64,000 nt of DNA from an uncultured Microthrixaceae bacterium (GTDB taxonomy: Bacteria > Actinomycetota > Acidimicrobiia > Acidimicrobiales > DATDAH01), in the NCBI GenBank assembly GCA_963748285.1, contig CAVVIF010000009.1, positions 52,262 through 116,261 of the forward strand, in the 5' to 3' direction. Both the position numbers and the translations under genes were made by a program. Below the pieces are notes generated by a model. The model worked only from the letters and a program-made list of their open reading frames with translations, made no database searches and was not told the DNA's origin. Numbering within the stretch: the stretch's first letter is position 1; every line of letters begins with the position of its first letter. Of the stretch, positions 11,391-38,642 are shown in pieces.

Positions 11391-11435
11391 GGCCAGCGCC
11401 CCGAAGGCCGACGGTTGCGGTCCGGCCGCTCGGCC

Positions 11436-13319: not shown

Positions 13320-13326
13320 GGCTGCG

Positions 13327-17442: not shown

Positions 17443-17689
17443 TTCACCCGGGACAACTCCACGCGACGACAGTCAGCGGTTAAGTATAGGAGCACTTGAC
17501 CGGACAATCGAAACGAGGCTCGTCGAACTGATCTTCGTCAGCGTCCCGTGAGGCGTAGTAGATAAGCGAGATGTTTCCACCCGTTGGTGGGGCCACCGGA
17601 GAGATGATCCGACGTGACCTAGCGGGGTACACGAAGGAGAACACGCCGATGACCCTCACTCATCATGACCTGTCAGAACGGCTCGAGAA

Positions 17690-18151
17690 AGTAAGGCGGG
17701 CGAGACCGATGTTGTCCGCTCGAGCCTGACCTGGATCTTCCAAGAGCTCATCGAGGCCGAAGCGACCGCCCAGATGGCGCCGCGCCATCGGGCGCACCGA
17801 GTCCGGACCGCGAGCGCCGCGGTCACCGGCCACGGCTATTCTCCACGGCGGCGAGCGATGTCGACTTGAAGACCCCGAAACTCCGGACCGGCAGCTTGAT
17901 CCCGTCGCTGCTGAGAACGCCGGCATATCGGGCCCTGGTCGGAGTCGTGATGGAGGCCAACGGTGCGCGGTGTGTCGACCCGCAAGGTCGATGGCCTGCC
18001 CTCGCATGGAGAGGCTTGCGGGACCCACCCAACCGGGACCCGAAGCGCTCGACCATTGCGCAGGCAACTCGAAGGGGCTTTCAGAGAAATCTCTATAGAA
18101 GTCATCTCGGACAGAGATGTCGCCGTACACCCTAGCGCTGAGCCTATTTGA
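17690..18151 (+). mobile_element. IS256-family transposase remnant (N-terminal third only, frame-shifted)
   Basis: FQELIEAEATAQ..., DVDLKTPKLRTGSLIPSLL, RALVGVVMEA and GVSTRKVDGL are spread over three frames. These match the IS256 hallmarks (LMEAE, PKLR.GSF.PSLL, GVSTRKVDDL). The remnant truncates at about 18151. Confidence 0.65.
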
Positions 18152-18330
18152 TTCCGTCGCGCTCGCGCGATGCAGCACGGGTCCTCGGGTGTACTCCTTT
18201 CAGTAAGGCTTTGACGGCCTTCGTTCTAAGAAGGGACTGGCTCATACGATTCTTTTGGGCCCCACAACAGGCTCCGGAGCCCTGCGACGCTTGCGCGCTC
18301 TAGACTCCGACGCGCCCGTGAAGGTCCGAC

Positions 18331-18995
18331 CTAGACCTGATCGAAAGCCCGAACCGTGATGATATACCAAATCGCCATAGATCCCAAAGAACAGTGGATG
18401 CAGGTCGAGTCATTGGTCCGGGTGAGCGGGAACCAGTCATAGCCACCACGATCTAGTTGCCCAAGGAGAGTTCCGCCTACGTCGCTGACTGACCTCCCAT
18501 CCTCATCAAGCCACCGTGCTGGCATCAATCACCCCAATGTCACTCCAGAATCCCACCGTCGTCGCACAGAAGCATGGATGCGGTTGCCTATCGCCGATTC
18601 TCGAGTCGCTGGACGGCGGCGAGTGGATAGTCGTCCAGAATAGTTCTAATGGGCTCGAGTAGCCGGGCTATCGGGAAGGCATCACCATCGAGGAAGATCA
18701 AGATATCATCCGATCTTTTGGTGCGACCACTGATAATTTCCGCCAAGAGGTTCAGTCGCATGGCGTGATCCGTACCCCCAACGGAAGGCTCTGGGGTCGC
18801 TGTGGTCACGAAATCAAACTTACGGTGATGCTCCTCCGAAATGCCGTCTAACGAGGCGTAGGTCCAGAATGGTGTATCGACGTTCTCCTTGAGGTATCGC
18901 CGCTGGATGTCGATCCATCGGTCATCACGCCAGTGAACGGTTGCTATGTGGACATTAGGACCTCGACCCCGAGTGTTCAGTGGGGGTAGAATCAC
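18331..18995 (-). CDS. Nucleotide-diphospho-sugar transferase-like protein (DxD), disrupted
   Basis: ILIFLDGDAFPIARL is a DxD-like motif. After RLENR the sequence continues in another frame as GDRQPHPCFCATTVGFWSDIG, then in ORF 18331-18528. The family was not identified. Confidence 0.4.
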
Positions 18996-19088
18996 GGAGT
19001 CTCAGAGCAGGTACTCAGAGCTTCCAAGCGAGACCAGATGGTTGACATTGACTCGGGATCAAGTCGTCCGGAAAGTCGGTGTGGTGAA

Positions 19089-19775
19089 CTAAGTTCGAAT
19101 CAAAGAACGCGTGGTCTGGATAGCCGAGGTTGTACTGAACACATAAATGCCGGAGCTGCCGCGAAGGCGGTCACGATCGACGTCGAATCGCAGCAGGGGG
19201 AAGGGCGCCTCAGCATGTTCCGAAATGAGCCGCTCATTGTACACACGCCAGAGCTCGGGCGCTCGTCTCTGAGAGAGTTGGCTCGTTCGGTTCCTGAGTG
19301 AAGCACAAACGGCCATTGGGTGTCGATATATTCCACCGAAGCAGATTCCAGAATCCCACAAATGCCGTTTCCATTCATCCAGCACAAGCAAGGTACGGGG
19401 ATCCTTGAATCCCCAAGGTTGGCATGCCGAAGACATCGATGATACAAGACGACTGAGTCGTGTGCGCTGGTCTTGCGTCCACGAGTTCGGGTACCGGGGT
19501 CTGTCCCAACTGCCTCCGTTCGCTCTCAGAACCGAGTCATGCAATTGAACAAGTGCTCGGTCCTCCCTGTTTCCGAGCTTGTTATGGGTGTTGCGCTCGG
19601 AGACGTTGCCGAGGTGCAGTCCGGAGGCTTGTAGACCTCCTGCCAACCAACTTGTGCCGCTACGGTGCATTCCGAGAATGACGACAGGAGGCAACGCCGT
19701 AGGCTCTGTAGCTGGTTGCACGGTCCTAACGTTAGCCGAGGAGACGGGCAGGCGATTTGAGTCCGAGCGAAGCAT
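19089..19775 (-). CDS. Sulfotransferase (P-loop type)
   Basis: VVILGMHRSGTSWLAGGL is a 5'-PSB loop. FKDPRTLLVLDEW is 3'-PB-like. The 228-aa ORF is mostly continuous, with a possible frame change in the last ~60 nt. Confidence 0.7.
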   Translation of the reverse strand: MLRSDSNRLPVSSANVRTVQPATEPTALPPVVILGMHRSGTSWLAGGLQASGLHLGNVSERNTHNKLGNREDRALVQLHDSVLRANGGSWDRPRYPNSWTQDQRTRLSRLVSSMSSACQPWGFKDPRTLLVLDEWKRHLWDSGICFGGIYRHPMAVCASLRNRTSQLSQRRAPELWRVYNERLISEHAEAPFPLLRFDVDRDRLRGSSGIYVFSTTSAIQTTRSLIRT

Positions 19776-19833
19776 CCCCTACTTTGACCCACTCTTGCGC
19801 TGAGGTGGTGACTCCATCTCGTGAGGAGTCCTG

Positions 19834-20646
19834 ATGCGCCGTCCACATCCTCTGGAGTTCCGGCGCCGGGCCGTCGGCCTGGCCAACCAACGCGACGAGC
19901 AAGGGTGAGCAGGGCACGCCGGTAGCCCGGGTCGCCGAGGACCTTGGCGTCGCTGAGAGTTGCCTGCGGAACTGGATCGCGCAGGCCGAGATCGACTCAG
20001 GCCGCCGGGAAGGCCGAGCACCGCCGAGCGGGCCGAAGCTGGTCGAGTTGCGCCGCCGGGCTCGGTGCTGGAGTCCGACACGAGATCCTGAAGCGGGCCG
20101 CGGCGCTCTTCGCCCGGCCTGCTGGAGGTCGGGGACCCTCGCGGCGAAGTGCGGGCGGGCTACGGGGCACCTAAGGAAGTCGTCCGGTCCATCTACGAAC
20201 AGGTACGACGCCGACCTCCGCGTCGCCTTCGGGACCCATCGGCCCCGACTCCTAAGACCCGACACCGCCAGAGGCCCCTCCCTCGGCCGCACGCTGCTCG
20301 AACGTGAGACGAGATCGCCGTCTGGCACCAAGCGCACGTCTCCAACGGGCCGACGGGTGGCGGTCAACAACCTCATCGGAGGGATCAAGCGGGTCGCCTT
20401 CGATCACCTTCACCAATCGCCGGATCCAGGCCCGGCGCTACGCCGGCAGGCCAACTGCGAACTGTTCCCGGCCATCATGCGCCGCTGGAAACGCGAGGCG
20501 CCCCATATGCACCACGAGATGGGGCAATTGAGACCGGGCGAGGCGTACTGCGTCTCGCGGGGACCAGCCCTCAAACCGGCGGGGTCAGAGCATGGGCGAC
20601 ATATTACTTGGCCGGCCTACGGGGTCAGAGTCACCGGCGATCTTGT
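19834..20646 (+). mobile_element. IS3-family transposase remnant (orfA plus the start of orfB, decayed)
   Basis: MRRPHPLEFRRRAVGLA...VARVAEDLGVAESCLRNWIAQAEIDSGRREG...LVELRRRAR is IS3/IS911 OrfA-like. Downstream orfB-like fragments are multiply shifted and truncated at the next gene. Confidence 0.6.
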
Positions 20647-21490
20647 TCACGCTGGACTCAAATCCCCTAGACCGGCAGAATGGAGTAGTTCCAGTTCCGC
20701 GGCTGTGAAGAGCGGACGGAAATTTGGACGACGCAATAGATGAAGCACCTCGGTCGGGAATGATGTCTCCCGGAACCTCTGAGCCAGCTCAATCGCTGTC
20801 GGCACCCGATCCTGCCCAGTGAACGAAGAGCCGCCACCCTCCTTGGAGATCCCTGGAACCGAGTCGAATTCGAGATCGATCTCGCCTAGGAGGGCGCGTC
20901 CGATAGTCTGGGCTCTCGTCAACCCAACGGTCAAACCAACAGACGTGCCACTGCGACGCGTCGGCCTTGCTCAAGTCCAACAGAACCTGCATAAATTGCT
21001 CATCGACCTTGGTGGTTGGACCCGCCCGCTCCGTCTGCGCTCTTGAGGCGTTTCGATGCAGTCGGGAAGCTACCAGGTTTAGCGTGGAACGCCTTATGAC
21101 AATTGCCTCCGTTGTAGACGGACTAGAGAGCGCCTGTAGATAGTCGAGTCGACGCTCCTCAGTAGAAACTACGATGAAATCAGACTGCCGGATCTCCCTG
21201 CGGCGACTCCATACAGCTTGAGCGAAGCTTCTTCCAGATCTGCCCACGTCATTGAGAAAGACAGTTCGGCCACTGCCAGTTCGCTGGAACCTCGTCCCGC
21301 AGGCTTCATCCGTGATAAGTGCTTCGTTCTTCTCCTCAAGAGCATTCACCAACCACGCAACAATCGCATGATTCCCACTCCGACTCATTCCAGTTACAAA
21401 GAATCGCCGCTTGCCGCGTGAAAGCCAATTCAAGTAGACACAGATAGATCGCTCAAGGAGCGACTTCGCGGAACGGTGAAGGATGTTCAT
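20647..21490 (-). CDS. P-loop, sulfotransferase-like hypothetical protein; one frame change near 20900
   Basis: RRFFVTGMSRSGNHAIVAWL resembles a sulfotransferase PSB loop. The C-part is in ORF 20647-20934 (LLGEIDLEFDSVPGISKEGGGSSF...). Confidence 0.4.
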
Positions 21491-21879
21491 CTAAGGAGGC
21501 TCCGGAGGGCTGAATTCTCGGCACGCAGTCTGCACTGGATTTCGTAGACAGTATGTCGCAGGCCGAGGTCAACGGGGCCTCGCCGTCATTTCCGTCTGCT
21601 CCAAGGCGTGTTCGGTCCCGCAGAACTCAAGCGTGAGGCCATCGCATCAGGCCACGGTCTTGCCGAATCGGGCCAAGTGCCCCACTCGATCTCCCTTGAT
21701 CGGGCGACCAGCGTTGCCTAGGCATGAAGCATCCTTTCGCCGCGACCGCGGCGAGATGTACCGGCAGCAACTTGCCAAGGCGCCCGAACCAGACTGGCCC
21801 GGAGAGCGTCATGCCTGGCCGGACACCTGGCAGTCGGTCTCGGGTGTAGCTGTCATGGGCTGGGAAGCGACTTGGAATT

Positions 21880-22330
21880 CCCCGTTCGTTGAGAGCTCTC
21901 TGCGACCGCCCGTTCAATGGATCGGCCAGCCTGCGAGGCACGGCCATCTGCACCCGACCTCTACTCGACGGGCTCGAGCCGACGCTCCTGATGGACGGCG
22001 AACTCTTCAGTGGCCCGGCGTCAGGCGCACGACTGGCGTGATGCAGGTCCCCGGCGAGGCGCGCTACGGGCTTTCAGAGAGCTCCGAGAGAGCGGTTGAA
22101 CGCCACCGGCCATTGGCGACGCCGTCGCGGTCTGCGGGAAACAGGGCCGGGACCAATCCTCAACGCCATCGAGCACGGGGCATCTCCAACGGCCGCGTCG
22201 AAAGGTATGAACACCAAGGCCCGACTGATCGTCCGCCGCGCCTACGGCTTCCACACCGCCGATGCCGCCGTGGCGCTCGTCATGCTCGCCGCCGGACCGA
22301 TCAACCTCTGCGCTGCCACACAAACAAGCC
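21880..22330 (+). mobile_element. ISL3-family transposase remnant (C-terminal end, frame-shifted)
   Basis: ILNAIEHG / ISNGRVE / MNTKARLIVRRAYGFHTADAAVALVMLAAGPI matches the conserved ISL3 C-terminus (SNGRVEGLNNK.RL..RRAYGFH...AL.ML). It is split over two frames. Confidence 0.6.
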
Positions 22331-27360: not shown

Positions 27361-28418
27361 GTGCGGATCCTGCTGGTCATCACCTCGACCGACCGTCGGG
27401 GCCCTCAGGTCTTCGCCACCCACCTCGCGGACGCCCTCGGCGAGCGGGGCCACGTCGTGCGGACGGTGGCCCTCGTCCCCGGCACGGGCGAGCGCCTGCT
27501 GCCCGTCGCCCGCGCTCGGCACCCGCCGGCCGGACCGGCCACCTGTGGCGGGGCTCCGGCGGGAGTTGCGGCGCCATGACGTGGCCGTCGCCCTCGGGTC
27601 GACCACCCTGCCCGCCTGTGCACTGGCCTCGATCGGGACCGGCACCCCGTTCGTCTACCGCCAGATCAGCGACTCGGTCGTCTGGAGCCCCACCCGCGGG
27701 CGGCGGGCCCGCACGAGGCTCTGGCTGGGACGAGCGGCGCACGTCGTGGCTCTGTCGGAGCACAACCAGGCGCAGTTGGTGAGCCACCTCGGCATCCGGA
27801 CCCGAGCGCATCACCGTCATCCCCAACGGCCGACCGGTGGACGGCCTCCGGCCCACGGGCCCCGGCGACCGGAAGGCGGCCCGGGAACGCCTCGGGCTGC
27901 CCGAGCGGCCCACGACCACTGTGCATCGGTGCCCTCGTCCTGGGAGAAGGCGCCGGCCTGGCCATCGAGGCGATCGGAAAGGTGGCCGGGGCCCAACTGG
28001 TCGTCGTCGGACGACGGGCCCGGAGGAGCCCGACCTCCGCCGGCTGGCCGACGACGCCGCTCCCGGGCGAGTGACATTCCTCGGACCGCTCGACGACCTC
28101 GCCGGCGATCTTCGCGGCCGCCGATCTGATGCTGTTGACCAGCCGGTCGCGAGTCCATGCCCGGGGTGCTGATCGAGGCCGGGCTGGCCGGGCTCCCGGC
28201 GGTGGCCACCCGGGTCGGTGCGGTGCCCGAGGGATCGGGCGGACGGTGAGACCGGTCTCCTCGTGCCCGTCGGCGACGTCGACGCGACCAGCAGCGCCAT
28301 CGAGGCAGGTGCTGACGAGCCGGGCCTGGGCGATCGCCTGGGCCGGGCCGCACGCGGACGCTGTGCTCAGCGCTTCGACATCGACCGTCGTGGCCCGCCG
28401 CTGGGACGTAGATCCTGA
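27361..28418 (+). CDS. GT4-family glycosyltransferase; many frame changes; 3' end uncertain
   Basis: VRILLVITSTDRRGPQVFATHLADAL, AAHVVALSEHNQAQLV, PERITVIPNGRPV, RVTFLGPLDDL, and LTSRSESMPGVLIEAGLAGLPAVATRVGAVPE...GETGLLVP are scattered over all three frames. Confidence 0.7.
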
Positions 28419-28442
28419 CCACCGCAGTCGGCCGGGGGCTGA

Positions 28443-28965
28443 TCAGACGGTAGGGCTCGCGCACCGCCGAGTGGCGCCGGCGGGAGGTCAGCAGGACGAC
28501 GCCGCCGAGGGCCACCAGGACCACACCGATGCGCACCCACGGCAAGCTGTCCGAGCCGGTGCGGGGCAGTGAGCCGGCGGGGGCGCCGGCGAAGCCGCAT
28601 TCGACCGAGGCGATCAACTCGAGCTCACCGCCGCCGTCGAGTTCGTCCTCGGTGCCGGTGGCAGAGACATCGTAGAACCCGGGGGTGACGTCGTCCGGCC
28701 AGGCACCGTCGAGCACGGCGACGCCGTTGGCATCGGCGGTGACCACGCCGAGGACCACCTGCGGCGGCCCGTCGAAGATGAAGGTCACATCGGTGCCCGG
28801 GGCGGCGCCGTCGGCGGTGAGGGTGAGGTCCCCGCCCGGCGCGCAGGCCTCGCCACTGCGGGTGAGGTTGTTCGGCTCGACGTAGCCCTGGCCCCCCGCG
28901 GGCAGGGCTACGAAGACGAGAAGTGCGCCGATGGCCACCGCTCCGGCTAGCAGGCGCTTGAACAT
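28443..28965 (-). CDS. Secreted LPXTG-anchored surface protein; stop position uncertain
   Basis: GGAGGA lies 4 nt upstream of the ATG at 28965. The signal peptide is MFKRLLAGAVAIGALLVFVALPAGG. The C-terminal sorting signal is LPRTG plus the hydrophobic stretch WVRIGVVLVALGGVVLL plus SRRRH. The listed ORF runs on to 27817, antisense to the GT4, and I do not believe that extension. Confidence 0.65.
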
Positions 28966-29077
28966 GAGATCCTCCACCCAGTGAATGTCACCCTAAGTGT
29001 GCACGATGGTAGCAGCCGGTGTCCATCCCGACCGGCGCCACCGGCGCGACGTCTCGCCCCTTTCCGTGTCCTCGTGG

Positions 29078-31429
29078 TCAGTTCGGTGTCACCTCGAGGC
29101 GGAATGACTCGTCCTCAGACGATGCGAACGTGGCCGACGCGCCCTCGGCGGTGCGCTCCCAGCCGGTGGCGTCGGCGGTCACCCACCCCTCGTCGGCCGT
29201 GACCCGGAGACGCACCTGATCAGGATTCACCAGGGGCTGGGACGCGTAGCCGAGCCGATAGGTGTCGCCCACCGGGAGGGCGCCCTCGAGCTGGAACCGG
29301 AGCGTGACCCGCCCCCCGGGCGGGATGTCCAGCAGACGGGAGTAGACCCACCGGTCGCGTTCCCGTTGGGACTCGATGTCGAGCGGCTGCTCGTCGACCG
29401 AGACCGAGGTCGAGCGACAGGGCGGAGTACAGGGAGACGTAGACCTGGTTCGTGCCCGGGGGGCAGGTCCGGGCATCGCTGCTGCCGATGACGGTGTCGG
29501 GGAGCCCGGACGCCGGCGCCCCGTTGTGGAGCTCCACCGTGGCCGTGGCCTGCACTCGACCCGTGGCCGGGTCCCAGGTGGCGCGGTAGTCGAGGGTGCG
29601 CTCGAGGAAGATGTCGATCTTGTTGTTGCCCGCCGTTCTGGGTGGTCAGCGAGAGGAAGTCGCCCTCCACCGGCGGCAGGGCGCCGTCGAGGCCGATCCG
29701 CTCCATGCAGGGCCTGCTCGTCGTCGTCGACGGCTGTGCACGATCAGGCGGCCCTGGTGCGACGACGGGGCCGAGGACGTCGGCCACCTGCCGGGGACCG
29801 GGGAGGTCGCCGTCGGTCAGGGCCTCGAAGGTCGCCTCGGTGGCCTCGTCGAGGAAGTCGATCCGCTCCTCCTCGTCGTCCTGGAAGGTCAGGTACTGCT
29901 CGCGGATCAGGAAGTCGGCGGCGTTCTCCGCCGTCAGGGGCTCGGCCTAGCCCGCGACGGGGATCGGGCCCGGTGAACTCCATGAGGGCGGCCAGGGCGA
30001 CCGGATCGACGATGATGACGCCGTCGACCTCCCGGCCCCCGGCCTGGGGGTAGAGCTCCTCCATCACCTGGGCGACCGAGGGGCCGTCGGGGCTGAAGGT
30101 GAGGTCCTGGAGGAAGCTCGGCCGGATGGAGCCGGCCGTAGCGGGCGAGGTAGTCGGCCGGGCCGCTGATGGTCCGCTGGCGGCGCCGGGGGCGGCGATC
30201 AGCTCCCGGATCCGCCCCGAGCGGGTCAGCTCGAGGTCGCCGTCGACGGCGGTGAGCTCGCCGAAGTTGCCGACGAAGCCGCCCAGGCCCCGAGACTCGG
30301 CCGGCTGGGTGAAGGCGATGAAGTAGTGGCGGGGCCCGTCGCCCCCGAACAGCGCCGGGGCCAGGCGCACGCCCTCGATCGCCAGCTCGGCGTCGGGCAG
30401 GGCCCGGTCGACTTCGGTGCCGAAGTCCGCGATCGCCGATGGACAGCGGGTCGACCAGCCACATCGTCCGCGCTTCGGCGACCTCGCTCCGAGGCGTCGG
30501 CGAGCGCCTCGTACGGCGTCGGCCAGCGGCGCCTCGAAGCGGGCGACCAGGTCGAGGTCGAGGCACGCCGTCGTCGAACTCGCAGCTCGTCGATGTCGGC
30601 TTCGACCGTCGCCTGCGGCCGCGGTCTCGGCGAGTGCGGCCCCTTCATCGGCCACGACGGCCGTCGCTCGGGCCTGGTGGCCGAGCACGGGGACGAGCCG
30701 GGCGGGACCGCCCCAGGTGCCCAGCGGGCGCTGGGCGGCCTCGAAGTCCTCCGTGGCCCCGACCAGGAGGGTCACCGCCCGATCGGGCTCGTTGTCCCGC
30801 AGGGCCTCGAGCCCGTCACGGACGTTGTTGGCCGCGTCCGCGCAGGTGCTGCTGACCTGCACGGCGGCAAAGGCCAGGCCGGCGGCGGCCACGACGGCCA
30901 GGCCGGCGAGGGCGACGACCGCGACCCGGATCCGCCGCTGGGCCCGCCGGCTCGACCGGATGTAGGCCGAGACGAGGACCGGACTGACGGCGACGAAGGT
31001 CACCAGAGCGGAGGCGCCCGCGTCGTCGAGCTCGAGGCGCAGCAGGACCTGCGCCGCGATCGCGCCGACCAGCGCCCCGAGGGGTCGCGACCGGCGATGG
31101 AGGAGCGACCGCGCCGATGGCCAGCACGAGGGCCACCCCGCCCGCCGCCTGCAGCGCACCGTCGGTCGACGCGACCGCGGCCATCCCCGCGATGACGATC
31201 CAGGTCCACCGGTGGGCCTTGGCCGTGGCCACGGCCACGAGCGCGGCGAAGCCCGGCCCGCCAGAGGATGTCGGCCGGGAGCCAGCCCGCCGGCTCGGCG
31301 TCGCTCAACGCACCGCCGACCGCGGACAGACGCCACGATGGCCCACATGAGTTGGAACTCGAGCGGGCTCGGGGCCCGCCGACGGCCGGTCGGCCGCCGG
31401 ATGGCCGTAGGTAGTGGCTCGCCGGGCAT
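29078..31429 (-). CDS. DUF4012-like membrane-anchored protein of actinobacterial EPS loci; many frame changes
   Basis: N-terminal TM segments, then RHYFIAFTQPAESRGLGGFVGNFGELT and VDGVIIVDPVALAALMEFTGP (recalled DUF4012 signatures). The C-terminus ...TYRLGYASQPLVNPDQVRLRV...FRLEVTPN ends at 29078. Confidence 0.65.
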
Positions 31430-31559
31430 CAGTGGGGTCTAGCAGCCCCCCGCTCGGGTGCCACGGCACCACGACCTCCCGGCGGTAACCTTTTCGTCGG
31501 GCACGTCACTGCCGATTGGGTGTTCGTGCCGCCCCGTCGTCGAGGCCTTGGTTGTACGC

Positions 31560-33624
31560 GTGGAACTGACTGACTACCTGCGAGTGCTGCGTCGGCGGTG
31601 GATGGTGGTCGCCCTGGCGACGCTCTTCGGCATGGCGGCGGGGTTCCTGACCGCGAGCGACGAGGACACCCCGGTCAGCTACACCGCCACCCAGACGTTG
31701 AGCGTGGTCCAGCCCACCGTCCTCGCGACCTCGCCCCTGGTCTCCTTCACCCCGTCCCAGCTGGCGGTCTACACGACCGTGGGCGACGTACCCGTCCGGG
31801 CCGCCCGAGAGCTCGCCTACCCGGGCACCCCCCAGGAGCTCGCCTCCCGCATCACCACCGAGCCCGACGATGCTCGTCGGGGTGCTGCGGATCAGTGCCA
31901 CCGACGTCGACGGGGCCCGTGCCGCCGAGATCGCCAACACCTTCGGCCGCCAACTCCGGACGGTCATCATCGGCCAGGCTCGCGAGGACCTCCAGGAGCA
32001 GATCGCCCTCAGCAGCGAGGACCTCGACGACCTCCAGGACCAGATCAACGAGCTCGACGCCCAGATCGCGGGAGAGCCGTCCAACGTCGGTGTGCTCACC
32101 GCGCAGCGCGACGCGCTGATCAACCAGTACCGCATCGCCTACGACGAGCTGCAGTTGCTGAGGGAACGCACCACCGGGGGCGATCCGGTCATCATCCTGG
32201 AGAACGCCGTCCCCCAACGATCCGCTCAGGGTCTCAGCGCCCCCAGGAGCCGGCCGGCCCGCATGATCCTCTTCGGGTTGCTGGGGCTACTGCTCGGCGC
32301 CGCGCTGGCCCTCGTCCTGGACCGGGTCGACACCCGGGTCCGCACCAAGGAGGACGCCGAGAAGGTCACCGGCCTCCCGGTGCTGGCCGAGATCCCCTTC
32401 CTGCCCCGGCGCCACCGGCAGGAGCTCATCACCGCGACCCGACCCGCCTCCCCCTTCGCCGAGGCCTATCGCAACCTGCGCTCCGGCCTGGCCTTCGCCC
32501 GCAGCCCGTTGCTCGACCCGATCGCCGTGGCCACCGACGGCCCCGGCGACGGCCACGGTGACGATGCTCCTCGGCGGCCACCACCCTCGGTCGATGACAG
32601 CGCCGACCGTGTTCCTCGTGACGTCGTCGGGGCCCTACGAGGGGAAGACCACCACGATCTCGAACCTCGCCGCCGCCTTCGCGGAGACCAACAGCCGGGT
32701 GCTGGTCCTGGACTGCGACTTCCGCCGGCCCCGTCTGCATCAGGTCTTCGGGACGCGGGAGTCCCCGGGCCTCTCCGACACCCTCTCGGATCCGCGTCAG
32801 TTCAGCGCCGACGACGAAGTGATCTGCGAGACCTCGGTCGAGGGCGTCCACCTCGTCCCCGCCGGCACGCCGACCGACAACCCCGCCCGCCTCTTCAACC
32901 GGGCCAAGACCCTGATCGAGGCCTCCCGCCGCCAGGCCGACATCGTCCTGGTCGACACGCCCCCGTACCTCGTCGCCAACGACGCGGCCGAGCTCATCCC
33001 CTGGGTCGACGCCGTCGTCGTCGTCGTCAAGTCCCGGCGCACCCGGCGGGGTCCCACCCTGCGCATGCTCGAGAGCATGTACCGCACCCAGACGCCGGCG
33101 GTCGGCGTCGTACTGGTCGGCTCGGACCAGGCGCAGTCGGGCTACAGCCCGTACTACTACCACCGGGCCAACGCCCGCACCGAGAAGGCCCGACGGCGCT
33201 GGCGCCGAGTCCTCCACCTCGGCCCGCCGAAGGACAAGAAGCACAAGAAGGACAAGAAGCACAAGAAGGACAAGTCCTCCGAGGTGGAGGCGGTGCGCGG
33301 CGAGTCGACGAGCGAGGACCTCGCCGCTTGGGCGGCTGAGCCGACCACCGAGGGCGTCACCGCCGACGGTGCGGCCGAGGCCACCAACGCGGCTGCCGAC
33401 CATGACGAGGAGGTCTCGACCGACGCGGCCTACGACGGCGAAGCGGGCGACGGGCGAAGGCGACGGCGACAAAGACGAAGCGGGCGACGCGACGAAGCGG
33501 CGACAGCGACGACGACGAAGCAGGCGACGGCACCGGGACGCTTTTCACCATCGACCCGGACGGCGACGACGCCCTGGCTGACGCAGCCGAGCTCGAGGTG
33601 CCGTCCACCCCTCGCGGGTCGTGA
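31560..33624 (+). CDS. Polysaccharide co-polymerase (Wzz) fused to a BY-kinase (CpsD/CapB-type tyrosine autokinase), with a long C-terminal tail; at least three frame changes
   Basis: GTG at 31560: ELTDYLRVLRRRWMVVALATLFG. A coiled-coil region and a second TM (ILFGLLGLLLGAALALV) follow. Walker A is SSGPYEGKTTTISNLA, A' is VLVLDCDFRRP, B is DIVLVDTPP, and the Tyr cluster is SGYSPYYYH. The tail ends at TGA 33622-33624. Confidence 0.85.
33230..33274 (+). repeat. Perfect 18-bp tandem repeat x2.5 (AAGGACAAGAAGCACAAG) encoding (KDKKHK)2KDK
   Basis: Read directly: 33230-33247 equals 33248-33265, and 33266-33274 is a half unit. It is in frame with the BY-kinase and is A-rich in a >70% G+C background. 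Confidence 0.95.
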
Positions 33625-35303
33625 CCGACACCGACCTCGACACCGAGGTCATCGCCCCCGACGACATCGACGAGGGCTACGTCCCCCATGTGCGCGACGA
33701 CGTCGTCGCGGTGGAGGTCGGGACCGACACCGTCCTCTTGGGTCGGTTCGGTCAGGCCGCGGTCCTGAACCCGACCGCCGGGCTCGTCTGGCGGTTCTTC
33801 GACGGCGAGTCCCCGCTCGGCGAGCTGAGCGACGACTTCGCGGCGGCGCTCGACGAGGACATCGACACCGTTCGGGACAGACATCATCCGCTTCGCCCGG
33901 GTCCTCGGGCGCTCCGGCCTGCTCGTCGGGGTCGCCGAGCCGATCGATCCGGCCCGGCTCATCCCGGTCGACTGGACGCCACCGGAACCGATCGCGGTGG
34001 GCGACCCGCTCGGGCCGGTGGCGCTCACCGACCTCGACGGTCACCCGGTCTCACCCGACGAGTGGCGGGGACGACGGGTCCTGCTCGTCAACTGGAGCCC
34101 GGGTTGCGGGTTCTGCGTGATGATCGGAGCCGCGCTGGCCGAGGCCGAGACGGGACTCTCGGCCGCCGGCATCGATCTCGTGCTCCTGACCCGAGGCGAT
34201 GTCGAGGACAACCGTCGGGTCCTCGACGAGGCGGGCCTCGGTGCCACCGCCCTCCTCGCCGACGGCGACGACGACCCCTTTGCCGGGTTCGGCACGCCCG
34301 CCGCCTACCTCCTCGATGCCGACGGACGGGTGGAGGAGCCGATGGCCTACGGCGCCGTCGACGTTCCGCGCCGGGCGGGCGAGCTGGCCGGCCTCGAGCC
34401 GGACGAGCCCGCCGACGCGGGGCCGCCGACGCCGCCGGGTCCGACGACGCGCGGTACCTTCCGGCCCCCAGCGCCGTCTGCGGTCCCGGTGGCGGCGGGT
34501 CCGTGTCGACCGAGTGGGCGGGCACTGCGGCCTACCGCATCGGCGACGTCCACGTCGGGATCCGCTACAACGAGCCGGAGACGGCGGCCGTTCTCGACCG
34601 CCTCCTGGCCGGGGCGCGCGTCCAGGACCGCCGCACGCCGGACAACTACTCGGTCGCCCTCCACCCGACGATGGGGGCCGGCAGCCGCAGGCTGAACCTG
34701 CTCGTCCAAGACGGCAACCAGCTCGTCCGCAGCCGATCAGCCGCTCGGGTCCTCGCCGCCCTCTTGAACCACCTGGACGCCCAGCTCACACCGCCCGACG
34801 AGCACCTGCTCGCCCTCGACGCCAGTGCCGGCGTGGTCGAGGGTCGGGCCCTGCTCCTACCGTCCGGGCTGGTGCACTGGGCCAAGCAGATCCAGACCAA
34901 GCTCGCCCGACGCGGCATCGTCCTCGTCGACGCCCCCTACGTCTCGATCGACCCGGAATCCGGTGAGCTGGTCGTCCCGACGCCGTCGATGCCCCACGAC
35001 CCGAAGGTGCTCGACGAGCTCGACGACGACGCCCGGCTGGCCCCCGAGCTGCCCCACATCGGTCCCGGGCGGTATCCGATCGCGGCCTGGTACCTGAGCC
35101 GGGGGCCGGACGCGATCGGCCCGATGTCACCGGTCGAGGCGGTGGCCTCGGCCTACCGGCTGGTCTCGACCGGTGCCGACGCCGACCCCGGCACCATCGG
35201 CCGCCGACTGGCCCTGCTCTTCGAACGGGTCAACGCCTACGGCGTCGGGCTCCAGCGCCCTGCCGATCTCGACGTGCAGGTCGACCCGGAGCACTGGACC
35301 TGA
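33621..35303 (+). CDS. Three-domain protein: PqqD-like, TlpA/thioredoxin-like (CGFC), and a ~280-aa domain of unknown function; frame changes near 33880 and ~34420
   Basis: GTGA overlap at 33621-33624. The PqqD-like part is AAVLNPTAGLVWRFFDGESPLGELSDDFAAAL...DIIRFARVLGRSGLL. The redoxin part is LTDLDGHPVSPDEWRGRRVLLVNWSPGCGFCVM...GTPAAYLLDADGRV. The C-domain is YRIGDVHVGIRYNEPE...GRALLLPSGLVHWAKQIQTKLARRGIVLVDAPYVSIDPESGELVV. Confidence 0.6.
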   Translation: MTDTDLDTEVIAPDDIDEGYVPHVRDDVVAVEVGTDTVLLGRFGQAAVLNPTAGLVWRFFDGESPLGELSDDFAAALDEDIDTVRDRHHPLRPGPRALRPARRGRRADRSGPAHPGRLDATGTDRGGRPARAGGAHRPRRSPGLTRRVAGTTGPARQLEPGLRVLRDDRSRAGRGRDGTLGRRHRSRAPDPRRCRGQPSGPRRGGPRCHRPPRRRRRRPLCRVRHARRLPPRCRRTGGGADGLRRRRRSAPGGRAGRPRAGRARRRGAADAAGSDDARYLPAPSAVCGPGGGGSVSTEWAGTAAYRIGDVHVGIRYNEPETAAVLDRLLAGARVQDRRTPDNYSVALHPTMGAGSRRLNLLVQDGNQLVRSRSAARVLAALLNHLDAQLTPPDEHLLALDASAGVVEGRALLLPSGLVHWAKQIQTKLARRGIVLVDAPYVSIDPESGELVVPTPSMPHDPKVLDELDDDARLAPELPHIGPGRYPIAAWYLSRGPDAIGPMSPVEAVASAYRLVSTGADADPGTIGRRLALLFERVNAYGVGLQRPADLDVQVDPEHWT

Positions 35304-35328: not shown

Positions 35329-36745
35329 ATGAACCCGCCACGCAGCCGACGGTCCGACACCACACCCGGCGTCGGGCCCGTCCTGGGCCTGGCGGCCGTC
35401 GGTGTCCTGCTCCTCGTGGGCGCCTCTCGACTGGACTCGATGACCTCCGAGGACCTCGGCGCCCTGATCGTCGTCGCCGTCCTCACCGCGATCACCGTGC
35501 CCCTGGCGGTCGTGCTCGGGCGTCTCGACGAGGACCGGGGCCTGATGAAGCTCCTGTTGGTCGCCTTCGCGGTCAAGATGATCGGCGCCTACGTCCGCTT
35601 CTCGGTCCTCTACGACGTGTACGGGGGCAGTGGGGACGCCGCCCGCTACTACGAGCGCGGGCATCGAGTTGGCCCAGCAGTTCGAGAAGGGGAACTACGT
35701 GTTCGGCGAGATCACCGGCACGCGCTTCATGGAGATCCTCAGCGGGTTCGCCTACACGGTGCTGCCGGAGAGCGAGTTGGCCGGTTTCGTCTTCTTCGCC
35801 TGGATCGCCTTCCTCGGCCTGATCCTCTTCAGCCGGGCGATCCGCATCGCCCTCCCCGACGCCGACCACCGGCGCTACGACCTGCTGCTCTTCTTCCTGC
35901 CGACGTTGGTGTTCTGGCCGTCGAGCATCGGCAAGGAGGCCTGGATGGTGGCGGTGCTCGGTCTCGCCTCCTATGGCGCCGCCCGCCTGTTCGCCCACCA
36001 CCCGAGCGGCGTGATCCCCCTCGGCTTCGGGCTGTGGGGCGCCAGCACGGTCCGCCCCCACCTGGCGCTCATGGTCCTGGCCGCTCTGGCCCCGGCGTGG
36101 TTGGCCCGACCGTCGGGCCGAAACCGCCTCGGGCTCAGTCCCTACTTCCGGGCCTTCGGCTTCGGCGCCCTGATCCTCGTCCTCCTGGTCGTGGTGTCCC
36201 AGGCCGAGGCCTTCTTCGGCGTGGAGCGCCTGGACAGCGAAGGGGCCCAGGAAGTGGCGACCATCACCGAGGAGCAGACCGCGCAGGGGGGATCGGAGTT
36301 CCAGAACACGCGGGTCGACTCCCCGACCGACATACCGGTCGCCGCGGTCACGATCCTCTTCCGGCCGTTCGTGTGGGAGGTCGACAGCGGGCAGGGTCTG
36401 CTCACCGCGGCCGAAGGTCTGGCGTTGGTCGCGCTGTTCGCCCTCTCCTGGCGACAACTCGTGGACCTTCCCAAGACGATCGTGCGCAACCCCTACGTGC
36501 TGTACTGCTTCCTCTTCGTCCTGGCCTTCATCGTCGCCTACTCGAGCCTTCAACAACTTCGGCCTGCTGGTCCGCCAGCGGGCCCAGATGTTCCCCTTCC
36601 TCCTCGTGTTGCTGACCCCCCTGGTCCGCCGTTCGGAGCCGGAGGAGGACGAAGCCGAGGAAGAGCCGGCCGCCATGGGCTCGTTCGCCTGCGACGCCGT
36701 GGCGGTCGACGCCCCGCCCCCGGCCCGCCTCCGTCCGGCCGGGCT
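35329..36745 (+). CDS. Polytopic membrane protein, Wzy/O-antigen-polymerase-like; frame changes near 35650 and 36540; 3' end uncertain
   Basis: About 10 hydrophobic segments plus one long loop (ERLDSEGAQEVATITEEQTAQGGSEFQNTRVD). It sits between the BY-kinase/PqqD gene and the dehydratase. No diagnostic motif was found. Confidence 0.5.
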
Positions 36746-36766
36746 GAACCCTCGTCCGGTCGGGTC

Positions 36767-38642
36767 TCAGGGGACGGAGGGCTGCGCCGCCGGGGTGTGC
36801 GGACGACGGCAACAGGCCTGTAGACAGGCCACGAGGTCCGGAGTGGTCGTCCTCAGCCCGTCCATGGCTCCGGGGGACAACACCCCGCTCCGAACCCGTC
36901 GGATGGCCTCGTGCCGGGTCGGCTCGGGCACCTCGGCGGCGGCGAAGAGGGTCTCGTGCAACTTCTCGCCCGGGCGCAGGCCGGTCACCTCGACGGCCAC
37001 GGGCGGGTCGACCGACTCGGCCATCCGCCGGGCCACGTCGGCAATGCGGATCGGCTCGCCCATCTCCAGCACCAGCACGTCGCCGTTCTCGCCGATCGCC
37101 CCGGCCTGGATGACGAGCTGAACGGCCTCCTCGACGGTCATGAAGTAGCGGGTCACGTCCTCGTGGGTGACGGTGAGGGGCTCCCGGGCGTCGAGCTGGT
37201 GCTGGAACGTCGTCAGGACCGACCCCCGGCTTCCGAGGACGTTGCCGAAGCGCACGGACACCCAGGCGCCCGCGGCCTCCTGCCCCATGCCGGCGGTCAG
37301 GCCCTCGCTGATGCACTTCGTGTACCCGAGTACGTTCTCCGGATCGGCGGCCTTGTCGGTCGAGATGTTGATGAACCGCTCGACGCCCGCCGCCCGCGCC
37401 GCGGCGAGGACGTTGCCGGTGCCGACCACGTTGGTCTTGACCCCCTCGGCCGGGTGGAGCTCCAACAGCGGCACGTGCTTGAGGGCCGCCGCGTGGAACA
37501 CCACCTGGGGCCGACGATCGGCGAACACCTCGCCGAGGCGACTGCGGTCACGGATGTCGGCCACCACCAGCGACTCGTCGTCGAGCCGGGCCTCATGGTC
37601 CAGCGACAGGGCCACGGCGTGCAGCGCCGACTCGTCCCGGTCCAGCATCACCAGTTCCGCCGGCGCCCACTGAGACAGCTGGCGACAGAGCTCGGACCCG
37701 ATGGAGCCCCCCGCACCGGTCACCAGGATGCGGGCCCCGACCACATAGTCGGCGATCGCCGCAATGTCGAGGTCGTGGGCCGGGCGGTCCAGCAGGTCCT
37801 CGAGGGAGACGGGCCGAACGGCGCCGACGTTCACCGGTTCGTCGCTCACGGCCCACCGGGGCGGGACCACCCGGACCTCCAGGCCAACCGCTTCCGCGGC
37901 TTCGGTCACCGATCGGACGAGCTCGGGCGAGGCACTCGGTATGGCGATGACCAGCACTTCGGCCCCGGTCTCGAGCACCACCTGCGCCATCGAGGAGCCC
38001 GGCCCGAAGACCGGCACCCCGCGGCCGAGACGGTGGTGGACCTTGCGGGGATCGTCGTCCAGGACCCCCACGGGGATCAGCGGGACTCGTGGGATCGCTC
38101 AGCATCGAACGCACCAACTGGCGGCCGGCGTCGCCGGCTCCGTAAACGAGGCTCGGACGGAGCCGATCGTGGCGGGGCCGACGGAGGCTCTCCAGGACCA
38201 GGCGCCATCCGTAGCGCATCGCGGCCATGGCCGTGAGAGCCATCGGACCGGCCATCACGGCCGCCCCGACGGGGACGGGACGGGAGGCGATGGCCGTGGC
38301 CGACACCACCACGATCACCCAGGTCACCGCCACCGACACCAGGAGCCCGGCCACCTCCTCGAAGCTGCCGAAGCGCCAGCGGCCCTGATACAGGCCCTGG
38401 TGCCACCCGAACATCACCTGAACCGCTCCGGCGCCGATGCCCAAGGCACAGACGGGCCCGATCGCCACCATCGACCAGTCGAACTCGTAGCGCAGCCATG
38501 TCGCCAGTACGAGCGCCACGCCCCAGGTCATTGCGTCGAGCACCGCGGTTATCGAGAAAACGGTGCGACACCGCTCTCTGGAGCCAGCGCTGCCGCAGAG
38601 TCGACGGCCGCGAAGCCTCGTTCTGGTCGTTCCGCCGCTCAT
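36767..38642 (-). CDS. Membrane-bound nucleotide-sugar 4,6-dehydratase (PglF/CapD/WbpM family); one frame change near 38075
   Basis: N-terminal TM region, then GARILVTGAGGSIGSELCRQL, FHAAALKHVPLLE, and ISTDKAADPENVLGYTKCISE...RFGNVLGSRGSV. Confidence 0.85.

Follow-up and report, generated by a model that had tools for sequence, protein, structure and literature searches.

The HPr-rel-A system, defined by HprK-related kinase A (TIGR04352) and a PqqD family peptide chaperone (TIGR04353), is a bioinformatically defined cassette that is functionally uncharacterised, and our literature search found no paper with biochemistry of this system or of any member of the protein family described here. HprK/P, to which such kinases are related, catalyses phosphorolysis besides kinase chemistry. 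In lasso peptide biosynthesis, precursor peptides are phosphorylated on Ser by HPr-kinase homologues, and the phosphate is then glycosylated by a nucleotidyltransferase (PMC8498205). Here we compare with these systems a gene in the window, by which we mean the whole 64,000-nucleotide stretch of DNA that was analysed; all window features given below with coordinates lie on its plus strand. The gene (33621-35303) encodes, after repair of its reading frame, a 560-residue fusion of a PqqD/RRE domain, a thioredoxin-like domain with a CGFC motif and a P-loop-less domain similar to HprK-related kinase A.

Reading frame of the fusion gene

The open reading frame from GTG 33621 to TGA 35303 is nominally open throughout, and the N-termini of two homologues (P0001 and P0002) back the start codon. 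When it is read unrepaired in a single frame, the middle third is Arg-rich nonsense. According to GC3 tracking and three-frame translation, the coding frame is mod0 at 33621-33878, mod1 at 33879-34448 and mod0 again at 34449-35303. We placed the responsible indels by nucleotide alignment against two intact homologous genes, L049 (89% nucleotide identity) and L048. At the first site (33874-33876) the window has GGG where both homologues have GG, a +1 homopolymer insertion followed by the GC3 frame switch at 33878/33879. At the second site (34419-34421, about 34420) the window reads GCGG-GGCC against GCGGCGGCC in L049, a -1 deletion located in a poorly conserved acidic linker, with the frame switch at about 34448. 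The indels thus fall at about 33875 and 34420, close to the positions 33880 and 34420 at which the sequence-only reading had expected repairs. The two 1-nt changes compensate each other, both are within G-runs, and once they are repaired the 560-residue frame has zero internal stops.

These frame breaks look like homopolymer indel errors of the assembly and not like biology, because frames break all over the window: they switch every few hundred bases, housekeeping Suf genes included. Broken genes also occur on contigs of the nearest relatives, which are “MFD” MAGs. The out-of-frame stretch of the fusion gene retains perfect coding GC3, and its conserved residues are intact, the CGFC motif among them; each domain has a dN/dS of about 0.3. 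The gene is kept under purifying selection. Could it nevertheless be a decaying pseudogene with real frameshifts, a remnant left after loss of a neighbouring kinase module? The two breaks would fit such a history, as would the absence from the window of the 4-kb partner module found in the relatives L005, L006 and L019. However, compensating indels in G-runs, intact coding signal across the shifted stretch, window-wide frame switching shared with the MAG relatives and the low dN/dS all speak against decay; the intact L049 gene also has no minus-strand gene directly after its stop, although its contig ends there. We consider decay very improbable.

The sequence-only reading had treated 33621-35303 as a single gene. 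The opposite proposal, that three independent genes (PqqD, thioredoxin and a third) are seemingly fused through sequence errors, could draw on GTG 33997 as a start for a stand-alone thioredoxin frame, on GTG 34503 as a start for the C-terminal domain and on the stand-alone C-terminal domain proteins that occur elsewhere. Against it, 97-98% of the stitched protein is covered by about 90 uninterrupted homologues of 535-627 residues, which come from several assemblies, some of them built from short reads, the PqqD profile match runs across the first frameshift, and no stop separates the parts once the frame is repaired. We give the three-gene proposal next to no weight, and the single-gene claim holds.

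N-terminal and middle domains

The product is one three-domain protein, predicted to be cytoplasmic because neither a signal peptide nor a transmembrane anchor was found on the thioredoxin domain. Its N-terminal PqqD/RRE domain (residues ~33-101; 33717-33924) matches PF05402 with 35 bits at a gathering cutoff of 23.4, so that the PqqD-like fold proposed from the letters alone is borne out by a profile search. The family profile of this region also matches the lasso RRE proteins TbiB1 (E = 6.5e-10) and TfuB1, as well as the PqqD structure 3g2b (E = 3e-9).

The middle domain (residues ~126-237; 33997-34332) is a thioredoxin-fold thiol:disulfide oxidoreductase of the ResA/TlpA/AhpC-TSA type. For the window sequence the AhpC-TSA and Redoxin scores (22.1 and 20.5 bits) are both under the gathering cutoffs; precomputed PF00578/PF08534 matches are present in most homologues, and the family profile of the domain matches ResA (E = 2.2e-13), Etrx and TlpA. 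The CGFC active-site motif, within VNWSPGCGFC, can be read straight from the sequence at 34105-34116, and the earlier description of a TlpA-type redoxin with an intact active site therefore stands. In the W-x-x-x-C-x-x-C pattern the Trp and both Cys residues are invariant in 61 homologues, while the motif itself is CGFC in 73 and CGYC in 65 of 154 full-length members. A Thr-Pro pair is conserved in the loop where the cis-Pro of thioredoxin folds is expected. An AF2 model of the full-length protein (pLDDT 90.3, pTM 0.85) suggests a compact domain arrangement.

The sequence-only reading did not recognise a covalent fusion with a disulfide reductase, but the protein is no one-off: it belongs to a large unstudied Acidimicrobiia family with 734 representatives at 50% clustering. 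There are 109 database homologues, and the approximately 90 full-length ones carry precomputed PqqD plus AhpC-TSA/Redoxin matches. Automated names given to members are “PqqD family peptide modification chaperone”, “thioredoxin” and “peroxiredoxin”. Variants include P0338, with a permuted domain order, and P0235 (951 residues), in which an apparent NTP_transf_5-like C-terminal extension was read by eye.

The C-terminal domain

The C-terminal domain (34449-35300; 284 residues as modelled) is homologous over its full length to stand-alone proteins similar to HprK-related kinase A, and it exists itself as stand-alone proteins of 265-297 residues. No Pfam or NCBIfam model matches it, PF07475 and TIGR00679 included. 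Using hhalign against a profile of 104 kinases, it aligns with a probability of 95.5% and E = 1.4e-8 over 244 columns; the kinase and C-terminal domain HMMs match each other reciprocally, and the kinase HMM finds the window ORF at E = 1.4e-4. In Foldseek, the AF2 model of the domain (pLDDT 92.9, pTM 0.90) retrieves PEPCK (E = 1e-3) and some 25 HprK/P chains (E = 0.2-1.5); its structural resemblance to HprK/P is only weak (TM about 0.26-0.42).

In the alignment, the LLLPSGLVHWAKQIQ segment (34851-34895) is placed on the kinase Walker A motif (PG.MEAGKTTL) and does not contain GK[ST]. The earlier proposal of an HprK-related core without a GK[ST] P-loop is confirmed in this respect, since the segment it had quoted falls exactly on the Walker A/Asp core of the kinases. 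GK[ST] occurs in the Walker A zone of none of 241 family members, compared to all of 120 kinases. The two invariant residues D161 and D168, in VDAPYVSID (34929-34952), are matched to Asp in the kinase motifs YLTDE and A.D, while the domain no longer has the His of the kinases' LHAGG motif. Twelve positions of the domain are invariant, among them four Arg and two Asp. Three of the Arg residues, R94, R96 and R100, form an RSRSxxR motif (34728-34748), which begins with RSR in 170 and RTR in 21 of the 241 members. An invariant Cys (C11 in the numbering of the domain; 34479-34481) belongs to the YLPAPSAVCGPGG motif ahead of the domain; it is invariant in 62 sequences and is also found in many stand-alone C-terminal domain proteins. 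The invariant Arg/Asp set could mean that the domain is an enzyme and not a scaffold.

Because the Walker A motif is absent, we read the domain as a putative pseudokinase, that is, a paralogue of HprK-related kinase A minus the Walker A loop. Alternatively, it might be an active enzyme with P-loop-independent chemistry (a phosphotransferase, phosphorylase, phosphatase or an enzyme handling sugar-phosphate or pyrophosphate), in which R94, R96, R100 and R208 together with D161 and D168 would be catalytic and the thioredoxin and RRE domains would deliver the substrate. The twelve invariant positions, the alignment of the Asp residues with conserved kinase Asp, the phosphorolysis performed by HprK/P and the stand-alone occurrence of the domain are in keeping with catalysis. 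On the other hand, the domain has no nucleotide-binding motif, it has lost the LHAGG His, and its usual co-occurrence with an intact paralogous kinase is a pattern typical of pseudoenzyme-enzyme pairs. Catalytic activity is possible but in our judgement unlikely.

Genomic context

In the window the fusion gene lies within a glycan locus comprising GT4, PglD-like, Bac_transf, DUF4012, BY-kinase and Polysacc_synt_2 genes. The upstream gene (31450-33624) encodes a Wzz-domain BY-kinase, a polysaccharide tyrosine autokinase that matches TIGR01007 with 116.2 bits (cutoff 108.05) as well as AAA_31 and CbiA; it has a cluster of Tyr residues (GYSPYYYH) and ends in a long acidic low-complexity tail, and its frame is broken several times. 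By its TIGR01007 score it counts as a genuine tyrosine autokinase. The fusion gene starts at a GTG (33621-33623) that overlaps the TGA stop of the BY-kinase (33622-33624) in a GTGA, which the sequence-only reading had taken as translational coupling. The overlap itself is there, but it joins the BY-kinase stop only after one further frame correction, which has the tail read in mod1 starting near 33460. L005, L006, L019, L048 and L049 share the 4-nt overlap; it is conserved throughout the six loci of the Microthrixaceae-like clade, and in that clade only. Downstream, 25 nt past the fusion-gene stop, begins the ATG of a polytopic membrane protein (35329-36789, end approximate) whose frame is also broken. 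It has no Pfam or NCBIfam match, so “Wzy-like” remains a bare label. The membrane protein is kept beside the locus in L005, L006, L019 and L048, and in the first three of these a kinase-module segment of about 4 kb lies between it and the fusion gene. L049 has no minus-strand gene right after the stop, unlike L005, L006, L019 and L048; the ORF that follows is a different one from the membrane protein, and about 180 nt of contig remain past the fusion-gene stop.

Among 43 genome loci of the family, the recurrent neighbours are kinases similar to HprK-related kinase A, PqqD proteins, NTP_transf_5 nucleotidyltransferases and secreted proteins with a Tat leader, which are often Cys-rich. Kinases are found within 10 kb in 17 of the 43 loci, and neighbour genes match TIGR04352 at E = 1e-16 to 1e-24, under the equivalog cutoff, and TIGR04353 at 32.2 bits (cutoff 35); the pairing of PqqD and HprK-related kinase named by the sequence-only reading is thus seen here. 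The operon L044 has the order C-terminal domain, PqqD-thioredoxin, NTP_transf_5 and kinase, while in L038 and L043 the C-terminal domain gene comes first and the kinase gene last. In the closest relatives, kinase-PqqD, NTP_transf_5 and Tat-leader Cys-rich genes form the 4-kb segment that is missing from the window. Tat-leader proteins, present at 17 of the 43 loci, tend to be found where the kinase is (odds ratio 10, p = 0.0013). Three reverse look-ups from Tat-leader proteins found no kinase or C-terminal domain nearby, so the leader is not exclusive to the proposed system. L003 and L040 have as neighbours a JmjC protein and a protein that weakly matches a sulfotransferase, and homologues of both are found in L014, L015 and L023. 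No partner class at all is present in 11 of 43 loci. The 64-kb window holds no partner kinase, NTP_transf_5, JmjC protein, homologue of the L003-type sulfotransferase or Tat-leader gene, and a check for a precursor-peptide ORF, suggested by the sequence-only reading, found none in it.

Does the fusion protein instead serve specifically to regulate polysaccharide assembly in response to redox state or peptides, with the BY-kinase (e.g. its acidic tail) or the membrane protein downstream as its target within the EPS machinery? The setting within a glycan locus, the BY-kinase overlap kept throughout the clade and the EPS-type neighbours in 20 of 43 loci would agree with this, as would the purifying selection on a gene whose window lacks the kinase module, and L049, which also lacks the minus-strand gene, though on a contig that ends shortly after the stop. 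However, EPS genes are missing from the neighbourhood of 23 of the 43 loci, and EPS context shows no statistical association with kinase context (p = 0.76). Only 4 of the 43 loci have a BY-kinase homologue within 10 kb, and in the fourth (L034) it is non-adjacent and on the opposite strand. Moreover, the C-terminal residues of the BY-kinase differ between relatives, its tail sequence not being conserved, and the downstream gene matches no Pfam or NCBIfam profile. The control of polysaccharide assembly suggested earlier is therefore a weak proposition, with BY-kinase coupling confined to one clade, and we doubt it; a role devoted to EPS regulation is improbable for the fusion protein. HprK_rel_A-like kinases, NTP_transf_5, extra PqqD and Tat-leader proteins are partners more specific to the family than EPS genes.

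Proposed role

We propose, at about even confidence, that the fusion protein is an accessory subunit, without kinase activity, in an HPr-rel-A-like system for peptide or protein modification, or else a lone RRE-guided disulfide oxidoreductase. The RRE domain would capture a leader-like segment of the substrate, and the CGFC domain would make, break or shuffle its disulfides. The dead-kinase domain, which would retain the kinase fold and the two invariant Asp residues next to a new invariant Arg cluster, may act as a docking or substrate-presenting partner, either of an active P-loop HprK_rel_A kinase or of the phosphorylated product, which NTP_transf_5 nucleotidyltransferases could then decorate; phospho-glycosylated lasso peptides provide a precedent for this. 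For the window the accessory-subunit reading is carried entirely by analogy with the relatives. The absence of the partner module, together with purifying selection and the coupling to the BY-kinase, suggests that partners and substrates are encoded elsewhere in this genome, or that the fusion protein acts alone as an RRE-guided disulfide oxidoreductase.

Comparison with known systems

The pairing of an HprK-related protein with a PqqD-like protein is shared with ScmC/ScmD of the SynChlorMet system. The neighbour kinases weakly match ScmC (PF27840, TIGR04249) and the N-terminal domain weakly matches ScmD, all far below cutoffs, and no radical-SAM/SPASM maturase was found among Pfam-annotated neighbours. 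With the extracytoplasmic oxidoreductases ResA, TlpA and Etrx the middle domain has in common the thioredoxin fold, the W-x-x-x-C-x-x-C motif and a conserved GTP loop at the expected cis-Pro. In contrast to these, it is predicted to be cytoplasmic and is sandwiched between two other domains, and the window sequence scores under the Pfam gathering cutoffs.

By structure, the C-terminal domain model comes closest to HprK/P and PEP carboxykinase, which have the PEPCK-like P-loop kinase fold, and the Asp after the P-loop strand is kept; the TM-scores are low (0.26-0.42), however, and Walker A is absent. Lasso peptide tailoring, with its HPr-kinase homologues (the paeninodin and pseudomycoidin kinases), B1 RRE proteins, nucleotidyltransferase and sulfotransferase, is echoed by the RRE, HprK-like kinase, nucleotidyltransferase and weak sulfotransferase match around homologues, and by the matches of the fusion-family RRE profile to TbiB1 and TfuB1. 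No lasso cyclase or leader peptidase was recognised among the genes of Pfam-annotated loci, the candidate substrates are Tat-leader proteins of 100-200 residues and not short peptides, and the C-terminal domain, unlike the lasso kinases, is predicted to be unable to bind ATP through a P-loop.

As in the HPr-rel-A system, a PqqD/RRE domain is paired with a fold of the HprK-related kinase A type, and neighbours of the homologues match TIGR04352 and TIGR04353, accompanied by NTP_transf_5 nucleotidyltransferases. The C-terminal domain and the neighbour kinases score under the NCBIfam cutoffs, however, and the true kinase is absent from the window. Unlike in HPr-rel-A, a single polypeptide joins both folds, separated by a thioredoxin domain, and the kinase-like domain has dispensed with Walker A.

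Reading frame of the fusion gene

The fusion gene runs from a GTG at 33621 to a TGA at 35303 on the forward strand, and its translation in a single frame gives arginine-rich nonsense in the middle third. Third-position GC and three-frame translation place the coding frame in mod0 to 33878, in mod1 from 33879 to ~34448, and again in mod0 to 35303. By aligning the DNA to two intact homologous genes of other assemblies, L049 (89% nucleotide identity) and L048, we located two single-base indels, both in G-runs: a surplus G at ~33874-33876, where the intact reading is GG, and a missing base at ~34420, where the repaired reading is GCGGCGGCC. Frame repair near 33880 and 34420, which the sequence-only reading had called for, yields a stop-free ORF of 560 amino acids. 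The GTG start at 33621 is backed by the N-termini of homologues (MTDTDID..., VTDIDVD...).

Frame tracking revealed switches every few hundred bases across all 64 kb, including the Suf, glycosyltransferase and BY-kinase (tyrosine autokinase) genes, and broken genes are likewise found on contigs of the nearest public relatives, the “MFD” Microthrixaceae MAGs. Because, in addition, the dN/dS of the fusion gene against L049 and L048 is ~0.3 in each domain, we attribute the frameshifts to assembly errors and not to pseudogenisation. The window stems from an indel-rich, probably long-read assembly, and its gene models need frame repair before any interpretation.

The C-terminal domain is related to HprK-type kinases

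The C-terminal ~280 residues (34449-35300; C-domain) gave no Pfam or NCBIfam match at E ≤ 1, and this includes TIGR04352 (HprK_rel_A, cutoff 200 bits), for which even the genuine P-loop relatives encoded nearby reach no more than 58-84 bits. Structure prediction and a Foldseek search, as had been suggested for this domain, gave a confident AF2 model (pLDDT 92.9, pTM 0.90) whose best match in the PDB is PEP carboxykinase (E 1e-3, probability 0.96), followed by ~25 HprK/P chains (E 0.2-1.5, TM ~0.26-0.42). As this fold similarity is weak by itself, homology was tested directly by profile comparison. The seed was a stand-alone 286-residue P-loop protein encoded beside the fusion homologue of locus L005 (TIGR04352 E 1e-23), for which 395 relatives were gathered, and a profile of 104 kinase sequences was compared with one of 62 C-domain sequences.

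The two profiles align end to end, with C-domain residues 25-280 matching kinase residues 3-275 over 244 columns (hhalign probability 95.5%, E 1.4e-8). The 104-sequence profile was needed for significance, since the C-domain profile reaches only E 0.016 and 0.048 against single kinase sequences. Moreover, direct HMM searches link the two groups (cross-matches at E 1e-4 to 4e-6): the HMM of the kinases matches the window ORF (E 1.4e-4), and that of the C-domain matches the kinases of loci L046 and L047. In the hhalign alignment, the kinase Walker A motif (PG.MEAGKTTL) is placed on the C-domain segment LLLPSGLVHWAKQIQ. A GK[ST] motif occurs in this zone in 0 of 241 family members vs. 120 of 120 kinases, and the C-domain lacks the G-x-x-G-x-GK[ST] pattern of the HprK superfamily; the histidine of the kinase LHAGG motif is gone as well. 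The original description of an HprK-related core without a GK[ST] P-loop is thus borne out by both the alignment and the motif counts. Asp-161 and Asp-168 are invariant in the C-domain and are aligned to kinase aspartates, and Cys-11, Trp-23, Arg-94, Arg-96, Arg-100 and Gly-207-Arg-208 are invariant residues specific to the family. Judged from sequence, such a pattern marks either a pseudokinase paralogue or a domain converted to a different chemistry.

The PqqD and thioredoxin-like domains

The N-terminal domain matches PF05402 (PqqD) with 35 bits against a gathering cutoff of 23.4, over model positions 7-67 of 67 and residues 33-101 of the stitched protein, and the match runs across the first frame break. 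The family profile matches the solved structures of TbiB1 (E 6.5e-10) and, in the range E 3e-9 to 1e-5, of PqqD (3g2b, E 3e-9) and also TfuB1, in agreement with the PqqD-like fold assigned at first sight. In the AF2 model the domain consists of three strands plus helices, as expected for the predicted RRE fold.

For the middle domain, the window protein remains just under the Pfam cutoffs (PF00578 AhpC-TSA, 22.1 bits vs. 26; PF08534 Redoxin, 20.5 bits vs. 26.6), and precomputed matches to these two models are present in most homologues. The family profile matches ResA at E 2.2e-13, and also Etrx and TlpA, so that the initial assignment to TlpA-type redoxins with an intact CGFC holds. The CGFC active site lies at 34105-34116. 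Among 61 sequences the tryptophan and both cysteines of W-x-x-x-C-x-x-C are invariant, as is, or nearly so, a G-T-P loop, whose proline is taken to be cis on the basis of the fold; of 154 full-length members, 138 have CGFC or CGYC. An intact CxxC together with a conserved, presumed cis-Pro loop is what characterizes ResA/TlpA-type oxidoreductases. No signal peptide or membrane anchor was detected in the fusion protein, and therefore it should be cytoplasmic.

A conserved fusion family

The stitched protein has 109 homologues, ~90 of which are 535-627 residues long, cover 97-98% of the query and bear precomputed PqqD plus AhpC-TSA/Redoxin matches. This survey of domain architecture, which had been recommended, and the stop-free repaired ORF agree with the proposed parse of a single gene into three parts, and the predicted fusion of the three domains is genuine and conserved. 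Scanning one genome per species gave 43 loci, every one from Acidimicrobiia or Actinomycetota MAGs, and the family seems limited to Acidimicrobiia and related MAGs of Actinomycetota. A HMMER scan with the C-domain alone retrieved 734 representatives (50% clustering) at E ≤ 1e-3, 91 of which reach E ≤ 1e-30. Variants exist: protein P0338 has the permuted order C-domain-PqqD-thioredoxin, and P0235 (951 residues) appears, judged by eye from the sequence, to carry an NTP_transf_5-like C-terminal extension. The full-length AF2 model of the homologue P0001 (86% identical; pLDDT 90.3, pTM 0.85) shows disorder in the acidic linker only, which suggests a compact three-domain body. The protein falls outside every curated kinase family.

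The glycan locus in the window

The fusion gene is part of a glycan locus that has Suf genes on its flanks. The order of genes in it is GT4, a PglD-like acetyltransferase, Bac_transf, DUF4012 (minus strand), Wzz/BY-kinase, the fusion gene, a polytopic membrane protein, Polysacc_synt_2 (minus strand) and a GMC oxidoreductase. The membrane protein had been called “Wzy-like”; since it has no Pfam or NCBIfam match, this name remains a guess. The upstream gene reaches 116 bits against the tyrosine-autokinase model TIGR01007 (cutoff 108). Translational coupling of this gene to the fusion gene, through a GTGA start/stop overlap, had been noted; the overlap is present, provided that the acidic tail of the autokinase is read in mod1 from ~33460, and the same 4-nt overlap is kept in L005, L006, L019, L048 and L049.

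The BY-kinase has an unusual C-terminal extension (33150-33620) following the Tyr cluster, with a KDKKH-type basic repeat PPKDKKHKKDKKHKKDK and then an acidic low-complexity tail of ~120 residues, which is poorly conserved in relatives save for the 4-nt overlap with the start of the fusion gene. We considered this tail as a C-terminal-serine substrate, as with lasso kinases, and rejected the idea because the final serine is not conserved: Ser is the last residue in the window, L048 and L049, and the tails of L005, L006 and L019 have Ala-Pro or Ala there. The minus strand at 27824-28992 encodes a secreted protein whose sorting signal is LPxTG-like (LPRTGSD with a hydrophobic stretch and RRR); it is kept in place, between the glycosyltransferases and DUF4012, in L005, L006 and L019. 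DUF4012 itself (29081-31407, minus strand) recurs in the EPS-type neighbourhoods of the family (8 of 43 loci) and is fused to Glycos_transf_4 in L001 (1-863). Further away, the region 4000-22000 has a GC content of 0.58-0.67 vs. ~0.72 and is chiefly minus-strand coding. In it are GT1-like and cytidylyltransferase-like genes, an ABC exporter and a minimum of three sulfotransferase-like genes with PAPS-binding-type motifs (~12400-13300, 19141-19778 and 20919-21490), and the region may be a sulfated-glycan island gained by horizontal transfer. Rfam gave no match anywhere in the window.

A partner module is absent from the window

Of the genome loci, L005, L006 and L019 are nearest to the window; they share 70-81% nucleotide identity with it over the EPS locus and are collinear with it except for one segment. 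This segment is a ~4-kb module (L005 10795-14738) that separates the fusion gene from the membrane-protein gene and in L005 contains an HprK_rel_A-like P-loop kinase on the minus strand, opposite to the fusion gene, then a PqqD domain, as well as an NTP_transf_5-like gene and Tat-leader genes. The module is cleanly absent from the window (junction 35306/35314), where the ATG of the membrane protein lies 25 nt past the stop of the fusion gene. In L049, an intact gene on a short-read contig, a plus-strand ORF also begins 25 nt past the stop and is not the membrane protein; the contig ends ~180 nt past the stop and is therefore uninformative on the absence of the module.

Neither the kinase HMM nor tblastn with the kinase-PqqD protein of locus L003 found a kinase homologue in the 64-kb window, and tblastn with the PqqD-NTP_transf_5, JmjC, sulfotransferase and Tat proteins of that locus found no homologue there either. 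Hence an HPr-rel-A cassette, that is an HprK_rel_A kinase adjacent to a PqqD partner, is missing from the window, and it is present in 17 of 43 relative loci, including the nearest L005, L006 and L019. A small precursor-peptide ORF had been thought worth looking for nearby. Jackhmmer and regex searches gave no Tat leader in the window (one regex match at 48191 is spurious), nor is there another candidate precursor ORF beside the RRE protein such as a RiPP cluster would contain. With the partners missing, either they are encoded elsewhere in the genome or the fusion protein works alone.

Neighbourhoods in relatives

HPr-rel-A cassettes are often found near EPS loci. Within 10 kb of the fusion gene, EPS-type genes are present at 20 of the 43 loci, an HprK_rel_A-like kinase at 17 and none of the classes at 11, and the EPS and kinase contexts are independent of each other (p 0.76, 43 loci). 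For the family at large, these counts argue against the view of the sequence-only reading that the protein exerts redox- or peptide-dependent control of polysaccharide assembly. However, the coupling to the BY-kinase by the 4-nt overlap is conserved within the Microthrixaceae-like clade, and such EPS regulation thus stays alive as a clade-specific rival to a role alongside the HprK_rel_A-like kinase. Unsupervised clustering of neighbouring ORFs, which is noisy on these high-GC, frameshifted contigs, added only GT4 and Polysacc_synt_2.

Gene order varies among the loci. L044 has the order C-domain, PqqD-thioredoxin, NTP_transf_5, kinase, and in L038 and L043 the C-domain gene comes first and the kinase gene last. 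In L003 (2353-9952, the same locus as L040), and similarly in L014, L015 and L023, the neighbours of the fusion gene include homologues of three proteins, namely a JmjC protein, an HprK-like-PqqD protein and one with a weak sulfotransferase match. A PqqD-NTP_transf_5 protein scoring 32.2 bits against TIGR04353 (cutoff 35) is encoded in L003/L040 and L015 as well. The L003 neighbourhood comprises a JmjC/cupin hydroxylase-like protein (483 residues), a sulfotransferase-like protein, an HprK-like kinase with a C-terminal PqqD (397 residues), a PqqD-NTP_transf_5 fusion (425 residues) and a Tat-signal protein of 280 residues with 6 cysteines.

At many loci, proteins carry a near-identical Tat-type leader, RRxhIKxAAxAGAxAW[TS]APhIxDSxASPAAA (e.g. 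RRAVIKRAAAAGAVAWTAPLIIDSLASPAAAA), ahead of a variable mature part of 100-240 residues, often with 8-16 cysteines. The genes lie at 12417-12861 and 18129-18650 in L005, 10866-11435 and 12983-14671 in L006, 9171-9686 and 15838-16329 in L019, 1844-2401 in L048, 9252-9785 in L038, 9271-9798 in L044 and 6530-7252 in L002, among others. Beyond weak Tat-signal matches, the proteins gave no Pfam or NCBIfam family. They occur at 17 of 43 loci, namely 12 of 17 with a kinase vs. 5 of 26 others (odds ratio 10, p 0.0013, 43 loci, uncorrected for phylogeny). With one of them as query, 98 relatives were retrieved from the database, and the contigs of at least 14 of these are equal in length to contigs with kinase or fusion matches. 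Reverse look-ups on three independent long contigs with Tat-leader proteins found no recognisable system component nearby, two contigs having been searched with the kinase and C-domain HMMs (no match) and the third judged from Pfam labels; thus the leader is not exclusive to this system.

Proposed function

RRE (PqqD-like) domains are the usual handle for finding peptide-modifying pathways. To our knowledge, HprK-related kinase/PqqD cassettes have existed as database models for years with no function assigned to them, and our literature search found no paper on the HPr-rel-A cassette itself, its kinase/PqqD models or NTP_transf_5 (PF14907). The RRE-Finder paper is silent on fusions to a kinase or a thioredoxin. 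This kind of system is known from database models, and the family described here is a stable, widespread variant of it, in which one polypeptide joins an RRE, a thioredoxin-type disulfide oxidoreductase and a P-loop-less HprK-type homologue, a kinase paralogue that lacks its nucleotide loop. The architecture is unusual and unannotated, and the window holds a copy without the usual partners. It offers three testable handles on the cassette, namely a pseudoenzyme-enzyme pair, a redox step and candidate substrates with a Tat-type leader.

The domain identities, the Walker A loss, the fusion and the genomic associations are established by the analysis, and the function is inferred. Our proposal is that the fusion protein serves an HPr-rel-A-like peptide- or protein-maturation system as an accessory subunit that does not itself phosphorylate. 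The RRE domain would hold a leader-like segment of the substrate, the CGFC domain would deal with substrate disulfides, and the dead-kinase domain would dock the active paralogous kinase or its phosphorylated product.

Could the family be the recognition and quality-control subunit of an undescribed maturation pathway for secreted Acidimicrobiia proteins? In such a pathway, the RRE would bind the conserved Tat-type leader of the variable, often cysteine-rich proteins, the disulfides of these proteins would be established by the CGFC domain in the cytoplasm, ahead of Tat export, and the dead-kinase domain would bring in both the HprK_rel_A kinase paralogous to it and NTP_transf_5, which would phospho-glycosylate the substrate, with JmjC and the sulfotransferase as optional extras. 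Taken jointly, all these steps make a scheme that we consider unlikely to hold as a whole; if true, it would mean RiPP-like chemistry on whole Tat substrates, with the fusion protein acting much like an RRE-guided Tat proofreading chaperone. For the accessory-subunit mechanism proposed here, the nearest experimentally characterised analogy is lasso-peptide tailoring.
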